From Escherichia coli (GTDB lineage: Bacteria > Pseudomonadota > Gammaproteobacteria > Enterobacterales > Enterobacteriaceae): a DNA stretch of 64,000 nt. Position numbers and translations under genes: made by a program. Positions 54,923 to 55,336 of the stretch are shown here, one piece after another (within the stretch, counting starts at the first letter, position 1; each line of letters starts with the position of its first letter). The notes beneath the pieces were generated by a model. That model was not told where the DNA came from. It searched no databases and saw only the letters and a list, made by a program, of their open reading frames with translations. The stretch lies in the NCBI RefSeq assembly GCF_044647545.1, contig NZ_CP172818.1. One strand, given 5' to 3'.

Positions 54923-55336
54923 TTAAATGACTCGGAGGTGTCTGTTAAACCCGTGGCGATTCAAAATTGCGATATATACATACCCATGACTGCCCAGCGT
55001 ATCGGCTTCACCAGTCAGCCCGTTACGGTACAGTGTGACACAGTGCGCGTACCTGGGATTCAGCTCACAGGAGAGCAGCATCAGCTCCAGATGTGCGACA
55101 AAATGCGGGAAGGCTTCATCCAGTTGTAGAGTCTGCACCTCACTGAATGAGCCGGTGAATCCAGCCCGGTCAGCCAGAAAATGCAGACGATGACCTTCCT
55201 GCACCAGTCGTGCTCCGAAACACGGTGTGATATCTCGTTTAAGCCCCCAAGTTTGAGTAGAGTCTTTATTCATAATTTTATTCCTGTTAAAGAAGACCAT
55301 GTTCGGCGAATGAGAATATTTGCCTGCCGCCGACAA
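54923..55336 (-). CDS. yagB: CbeA/YagB-family antitoxin homolog without adjacent toxin gene
   Basis: Paralog of yafW (…[26 protein letters not shown]…HCVTLYRNGLTGEADTLGSHGYVYIAI); likely start at MNKDST (55273). Confidence 0.8.
   Translation of the reverse strand: MSAAGKYSHSPNMVFFNRNKIMNKDSTQTWGLKRDITPCFGARLVQEGHRLHFLADRAGFTGSFSEVQTLQLDEAFPHFVAHLELMLLSCELNPRYAHCVTLYRNGLTGEADTLGSHGYVYIAILNRHGFNRHLRVI

Follow-up and report, generated by a model that had tools for sequence, protein, structure and literature searches.

The toxins of the CbtA type bind FtsZ and MreB, and the antitoxin CbeA binds and bundles FtsZ and MreB rather than binding the toxin (PMC5624674). CbeA also protects against several unrelated FtsZ inhibitors (PMC5624674). 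Three toxins of the CbtA family are described in Escherichia coli K-12, each with an adjacent antitoxin (PMC5371832, PMC5624674). [quoted passage not shown] In some bacteria, the homologues of YkfI and YafW are not adjacent (Wen et al., PMC5371832). A triple deletion of yafW, yfjZ and cbeA that leaves all three toxin genes present grows normally, which Wen et al. attribute to low toxin expression; yagB was not among the genes deleted (PMC5371832).

YagB was already proposed as an orphan antitoxin by Wen et al. in 2017 (PMC5371832), and its RefSeq product name in K-12 is "orphan antitoxin YagB", so its orphan status is a known finding and yagB is an ordinary, known feature, real and correctly interpreted before. 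The descriptive additions made here are the exact insertion sequence (IS) breakpoints, the chimeric tail, residue Gly88, the radC remnant, and a yagB clade with toxins in other genera. An ASKA-derived Cre-YagB fusion is translocated by the F type IV secretion system (T4SS), as are CbeA and YfjZ (PMC11288057), and a stable YagB product is therefore possible upon over-expression. The gene belongs to a yagA-yagB-insX transcription unit; XynR and H-NS bind in the promoter region of this unit, where a sigma-S footprint is also seen (bioRxiv 10.1101/2025.05.13.653802).

Identity of yagB and its relatives in other genera

The window (the whole 64-kb stretch of DNA that was analysed) is the CP4-6 region of E. 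coli K-12, and the DNA over yagB and its flanks is 100% identical to K-12 genomes. In NC_000913.3 the feature "cryptic prophage CP4-6" holds yagB as b0266, at 280385-280735. The gene order on the plus strand is mmuM, afuC, afuB' (truncated), IS1, IS30 fragment, ISX (insX), yagB, yagA and yagE/yagF (Table 1). The original prediction gave yagB the coordinates 54923-55336, of which the end at 54923 and the minus strand stand, but the start at 55336 is the furthest upstream TTG and the true ATG is 63 nt downstream of it. The 137-aa TTG-started open reading frame (ORF) was rejected as the yagB gene because homologues start at the ATG and because its 21 extra codons overlap the radC 3' remnant, in another frame.

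Table 1. Coordinates of the features of the yagB locus and of the paralogous antitoxin/toxin pair, in positions of the window.
Feature	Position	Strand	Description or evidence
ykfI	37872-38213	-	only CbtA-family toxin gene in the window; Pfam CbtA_toxin, E 2.4e-68
yafW	38234-38551	-	intact paralogous CbeA-family antitoxin gene of CP4-6; Pfam CbeA_antitoxin, E 6.6e-49
afuB'	53358-53706		truncated by IS1
IS1 copy (insA/insB)	53707-54468	-	ORFs; RefSeq IS1B at the same site
IS30 fragment (insI2 pseudogene)	54469-54649	+	abuts truncated ISX; RefSeq annotation mapped to the window
ISX	54652-54963	-	312-bp left-end fragment of an IS3-family element; HTH_Tnp_1, E 9.6e-19; RefSeq mobile_genetic_element
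insX pseudogene	54652-54900		truncated orfA in ISX; RefSeq annotation mapped to the window
yagB coding sequence	54923-55273	-	116 aa; ATG at 55273, annotated and supported by homology
IS-encoded tail of yagB	54923-54963	-	LNRHGFNRHLRVI and stop; left terminal 41 nt of ISX
Native part of yagB	54964-55273	-	codons 1-103 and first base of codon 104; CbeA-family antitoxin domain
radC-yagB spacer	55274-55286	-	13 nt with ribosome-binding site (AGGA); comparison with intact loci
radC (JAB-domain) 3' remnant	55287-55352	-	last 21 codons (VPDHLIVGGRQIFSFAEHGLL) and stop; frame translation
ISEc19	55338-56598	-	IS481-family element; RefSeq 'IS481-like element ISEc19 family transposase'; left end approximate
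yagA	55367-56521		transposase gene in ISEc19; rve and HTH domains

By sequence profile, YagB is a member of the CbeA/YeeU/YafW/YfjZ family of type IV antitoxins: residues 7-105 match positions 1-99 of the 101 of Pfam PF06154 (CbeA_antitoxin) with 178.7 bits and an E value of 3.8e-53, the curated cutoff being 27 bits. The alignment with YafW has 64/99 identities (65%; E 7e-46), and the PDB sequences of the solved YfjZ and YeeU structures are matched with E values of 4e-41 (YfjZ) to 1e-35. The original prediction had named the product a CbeA-type antitoxin paralog, to be refuted by a lack of similarity to YafW; the profile match and the alignment bear the name out.

The same prediction held that yagB has no cognate toxin, that a truncated orfA/IS30/IS1 block fills the position of the toxin gene, and that a CbtA toxin is encoded about 17 kb away, in a yafW-ykfI pair with a gap of about 20 bp. 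Each of these points is upheld. Searches by tblastn with three CbtA-family queries (YkfI and the toxins of two of the relatives described below, L003 and L007) detected no CbtA-like sequence other than ykfI in the 64 kb, and blastn with 1.4 kb of the DNA downstream of the antitoxin in L003 detected no toxin remnant of the yagB locus in the window. The gene ykfI lies 16.7 kb from yagB, and the yafW-ykfI gap is 20 nt both by the coordinates here and in the literature (PMC5371832). Downstream of yagB there is no intact toxin ORF; the DNA consists of an IS3-family orfA fragment (ISX/insX), the IS30 fragment and IS1.

The nearest relatives of YagB are proteins of 111-112 aa from Citrobacter, Yersinia, Pantoea, Buttiauxella and Cedecea, with 85-95% amino acid identity, and their genes are 88-93% identical in nucleotides to the native part of yagB. 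The antitoxin paralogues of E. coli are more distant, at 65-74% amino acid identity and no more than about 74% at the DNA level. Seven orthologous loci of the yagB clade were compared (L003, L007, L012, L013, L014, L015 and L016), five of which are assessable for a toxin; the toxin position lies beyond the end of the locus in L015, which ends about 100 nt past the antitoxin, and in L012, which ends just after it. The check for a toxin downstream of yagB relatives that the original prediction had proposed is positive in 5/5 assessable loci, from Buttiauxella, Cedecea, a Citrobacter-like sample and Yersinia: an antitoxin of 106-111 aa is followed, after 66-79 nt, by an intact toxin ORF of 106-107 aa. 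The toxin ORFs of L003 and L007 match Pfam CbtA_toxin, and the L003 toxin has 84-85% identity to its counterparts in L013, L014 and L016. In four of the seven loci (L003, L012, L013 and L016), radC is followed by a 13-nt spacer with a ribosome-binding site nearly identical to that of K-12. The ancestral order in the intact loci is (antirestriction)-radC-[13 nt]-antitoxin-[66-79 nt]-CbtA toxin. A PF06755 toxin gene directly downstream, as in a complete type IV CbtA/CbeA module, is present in 5/5 orthologous loci and absent at yagB; the K-12 lineage has therefore lost a toxin that the ancestral locus had.

Two of the genomes that carry members of the yagB clade have other features of note. In Yersinia enterocolitica, the island with the yagB-clade pair (L007/L008, 2121-3779 and 974-2128) contains genes for an OLD-like TOPRIM/AAA ATPase and a UvrD-like helicase, Gabija-like by domain content, inserted between yfjT and radC. 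In Buttiauxella massiliensis, a 41.7-kb contig (NZ_LR722669.1) carries two yagB-clade antitoxin copies in opposite orientations (L014 and L015), with 91% and 93% amino acid identity to YagB.

Within E. coli, 317 of 5426 complete genomes carry the yagB allele, and most of these are K-12 or laboratory strains derived from it. The IS junction is common to all 317, and no untruncated allele was found among the 5426. Because of this restricted distribution, always with the IS junction, conservation of yagB is no evidence of selection. A database cluster of 133 sequences, represented by protein P0001, contains a YagB variant with the same IS tail and a Glu89Gly substitution beside Gly88 (LTGGADTLGS), which may be further decay of a conserved motif or may reflect sequencing variants in K-12 derivatives.

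Insertion sequence joints on either side of yagB

The downstream break is defined to the base. In K-12 the native sequence ...GCAATTT is followed by TGAATCGCC, the start of ISX, whereas in the intact relatives it continues as ATCCCTCAAAACAGGTTAAAGACTGA, and the base at which the two diverge is the base at which the IS starts. Codon 104 is a hybrid, and residues 104-116 (LNRHGFNRHLRVI) and the stop codon are read from the IS terminus, replacing the eight native residues YPSKQVKD of intact relatives. The ISX annotation of NC_000913.3 likewise reaches the base equal to window position 54963, so overlapping yagB by 41 nt. ISX is an IS3-family element by its terminal TG, its orfA with an HTH_Tnp_1 domain, and the mobility of the same sequence in unrelated contexts. 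By megablast (query 54652-54990), 1859 of 5426 genomes have ISX-type sequence, chromosomal or plasmid-borne, and outside K-12-type genomes the full-length matches listed mostly start at query position 27-28, which is window position 54963-54964. Two ISX-type copies have unrelated neighbours, a PfkB kinase gene in one case and hok, on a plasmid, in the other; both copies start with TGAATCGCCAC... and have a full orfAB with a programmed frameshift, and full-length copies in unrelated contexts are 96-99% identical to ISX.

The window has kept nothing of the missing 3' part of the antitoxin gene, the spacer or the toxin gene. Several rearrangements are needed to account for this region, since ISX is cut after 312 bp by the IS30 fragment, which itself abuts the IS1 that truncates afuB. 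The IS30 fragment shares 99.4% identity with 46125-46305, which belongs to the window's other IS30 sequence.

Compared with IS1B of MG1655, the IS1 copy has 55 substitutions and lacks 6 nt of insB, and the surrounding 6 kb show no other difference from NC_000913.3. The variant at this site is absent from complete RefSeq E. coli genomes, in which the best full-length match is 94.3%, and copies at 99.3-99.5% are found in a handful of records, four of which are small plasmids or contigs of about 6.85 kb. Either the source of the DNA is a K-12-like strain in which IS1 was replaced, or the copy has undergone gene conversion.

A scan of 54400-56900 for promoters and terminators returned no terminators, and promoter-like sites were no more numerous than in shuffled sequence. 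The only sigma-70-like site is on the minus strand in the ISX leader (54948-54920, TTAACA-17-TAAAAT, 10 of 12), overlaps the yagB stop codon, and is presumably the IS transposase promoter.

On the upstream side, homology to intact loci begins at window position 55352. The radC remnant, cut 66 nt from the end of radC, aligns collinearly with the 3' end of radC in L003; in RefSeq it is a partial CDS named 'hypothetical protein, missing N-terminus'. The radC-yagB spacer is identical in sequence and length in L003, and of equal length with one base changed in L013 and L016. In the intact loci the original promoter is upstream of the antirestriction-radC operon, and this promoter has been lost at yagB.

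The joint between ISEc19 and the radC remnant falls within a 15-nt stretch, 55338-55352, GTCCCCGA(C/A)CACCTG, that is common to the IS and radC. The left (yagE-proximal) end of ISEc19 has two tandem copies of a terminal motif of about 20 nt, whereas the yagB-proximal end has one (inverted repeats I2 and I3; 55338-55368 and 56547-56598). In an IS481-family fragment of strain 135, the second copy of the motif begins where K-12 switches to radC sequence. On thin evidence, the joint resembles the outcome of a deletion within a short homology more than that of a clean insertion, and the arrangement suggests that the deletion removed the outer right terminal repeat of ISEc19, which would leave the element immobile. 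A search of the collection for a close full-length ISEc19 by which to fix the right end found none outside K-12-type genomes, other matches being partial at 83%, and truncation of the repeat is for this reason read from the internal repeats and the one strain 135 fragment. Just outside the left end of ISEc19, the yagA-yagE intergenic region contains an inverted repeat (56599-56655) of 18 nt with 94% complementarity (CCCCAAAGGGGAGAGGGG / CCCCTCGCCCCTTTGGGG) and a 21-nt loop.

From the breaks at 54963/54964 and 55352, the native island is 54964-55352, or 389 bp, which is all that survives of a radC-antitoxin-toxin module between ISX and the truncated ISEc19. The island is 92.8% identical to L003 (4922-5310) without gaps, the identity to the yagB locus extending up to exactly the 54964/54963 junction. 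The anatomy of the locus as reconstructed is held with high confidence. In K-12 the ancestral module is reduced to these 389 bp. ISX sits at codon 104 of the antitoxin gene and was later truncated and abutted by the IS30 fragment and IS1; on the other side, radC is cut at the joint with the truncated ISEc19 (yagA). The resulting ORF combines 103 native and 13 IS-encoded residues and keeps the domain and the predicted fold, with the Tyr-Pro lost and Cys88 changed to Gly. Its own promoter is probably gone, and the literature has yagB transcribed from the yagA promoter region, to which XynR and H-NS bind.

Possible activity of the YagB protein

The explanation that is favoured, if only somewhat, is that yagB is the remnant of a second cbeA/cbtA-type (type IV) module in CP4-6, the product of which, if made, likely acts like its paralogues. 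YagB would then most likely bind polymers of FtsZ and MreB, the bundling of which it would stabilise, with a redundant cross-protective effect against YkfI, CbtA and YpjF. Cross-neutralisation of YkfI by YagB is plausible from the family relationship, and the probability that YagB keeps neutralising activity is judged to be a little short of even.

Set against an alignment of 47 relatives, YagB differs at only three of the strongly conserved columns. Gly88 lies within the most conserved motif (T-C-E-A-D-T-L-G), at a position where all 47 relatives in the alignment, and 118 of the 120 best hits in the database, have Cys; Leu104 and Asn105, both IS-encoded, are Tyr in 46/47 and Pro in 41/47 relatives, respectively. 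The conserved residues of the family, which include this motif and the C-terminal Tyr-Pro, are thus incompletely preserved in YagB, with the other conserved columns kept. An AlphaFold2 model, with a mean pLDDT of only 65, has strands at residues 20-26, 29-35, 78-83, 86-92 and 98-105 and a helix at 45-67; the predicted order, beta-beta-alpha-beta-beta-beta, is the order known for the family (a two-stranded hairpin, a long helix and three strands). The last predicted strand extends to the IS junction, and tail residues 108-116 have pLDDT below 50. Pairwise dN/dS between YagB and intact relatives is 0.21 and 0.14, and between intact relatives 0.13, values that do not discriminate relaxed selection because the divergence mostly predates the truncation.

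A serious alternative, of considerable probability though clearly below even, is that yagB is an inert pseudogene remnant: the Cys88Gly change and the loss of the native C-terminus and of its own promoter would make its product inactive or prevent its synthesis in meaningful amounts, and the gene would persist only for want of a deletion in so young a lineage as K-12. Both flanks of the gene are rearrangement joints, the only known promoter is occupied by H-NS and the repressor XynR, and the confinement of yagB largely to K-12 and its derivatives, the substitution at the nearly invariant Cys88, and the exchange of the conserved Tyr-Pro end for IS-encoded residues all fit such decay; in addition, YkfI is already covered by its cognate antitoxin YafW. 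However, the ORF is open behind the same ribosome-binding site and 13-nt spacer as in intact loci, the Pfam profile is matched almost from end to end, the last strand is predicted to form, the ASKA-expressed Cre-YagB worked as a translocation substrate (PMC11288057), and paralogues no more similar than 65-85% cross-neutralise freely.

Very improbable is the co-option of the chimeric protein for a non-neutralising role, for example as a cytoskeleton modulator of the XynR regulon or stationary phase, or as conjugation cargo. Co-transcription of yagA and yagB under XynR and sigma-S control, the passage of Cre-YagB through the F T4SS, and the protection by CbeA against several unrelated FtsZ inhibitors would agree with such a role, but the XynR regulation is most simply a by-product of the position of the ISEc19 promoter region, translocation is not specific to YagB since CbeA and YfjZ are translocated too, and no yagB phenotype is reported. 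Least probable of all is a split or displaced pair in which the cognate toxin of YagB is encoded elsewhere and YagB is not truly an orphan: homologues of YkfI and YafW can be non-adjacent in some bacteria and the search here covered 64 kb, but the sole CbtA-like sequence in the window is ykfI, which has its own adjacent antitoxin, as does each of the three CbtA-family toxins described in K-12, and the 3' end and downstream region of yagB were destroyed by IS elements rather than relocated.

The IS-fused YagB might be an active fourth antitoxin that explains the normal growth of the yafW/yfjZ/cbeA triple deletion, but this is unlikely. Were it so, YagB could make the cell immune to CbtA toxins brought in by P4-like islands, and the location of yagB behind the yagA promoter region would tie protection against the CbtA family to XynR/xylonate and stationary phase. 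YagB is an uncontrolled variable in the published multi-antitoxin deletion strains, its removal not being reported there. The base-level reconstruction is useful for anyone testing YagB, because the 116-aa ORF that has been cloned encodes not the native antitoxin but a Cys88Gly variant with an IS-chimeric C-terminus; otherwise it matters little beyond housekeeping.

YagB among type IV modules and orphan antitoxins

Like the YafW/YkfI (CP4-6), YfjZ/YpjF (CP4-57) and CbeA/CbtA (CP4-44) pairs of K-12, yagB has radC upstream and is located on a P4-like island; its product belongs to the same Pfam family (PF06154), has 65% amino acid identity to YafW, and is predicted, at a mean pLDDT of 65, to take the fold of the YfjZ and YeeU structures. 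Unlike those pairs, it has no downstream toxin gene, its 3' end is IS sequence, residue 88 is Gly rather than Cys, no DUF987 gene is found between radC and the antitoxin gene, and its own promoter is lost.

The closest resemblance is to the yagB clade of Buttiauxella, Cedecea, Citrobacter, Yersinia and Pantoea, with which yagB shares its native part, at 88-95% amino acid identity, and the radC-13 nt-antitoxin junction (in 4/7 loci). In contrast to yagB, the members of this clade are complete pairs, with an antitoxin that has Cys88 and ends in ...IAIYPSKQVKD or ...IAIYPSK and a toxin ORF 66-79 nt later.

Orphan antitoxins can act as anti-addiction or cross-protective modules, as the chromosomal ccd does against plasmid ccd. 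Whereas damage by IS elements, and not evidence of selection, accounts for the orphan state of yagB, and protection by YagB is putative, yagB resembles such anti-addiction antitoxins in that the antitoxin gene has outlasted its toxin and the genome encodes related ones.
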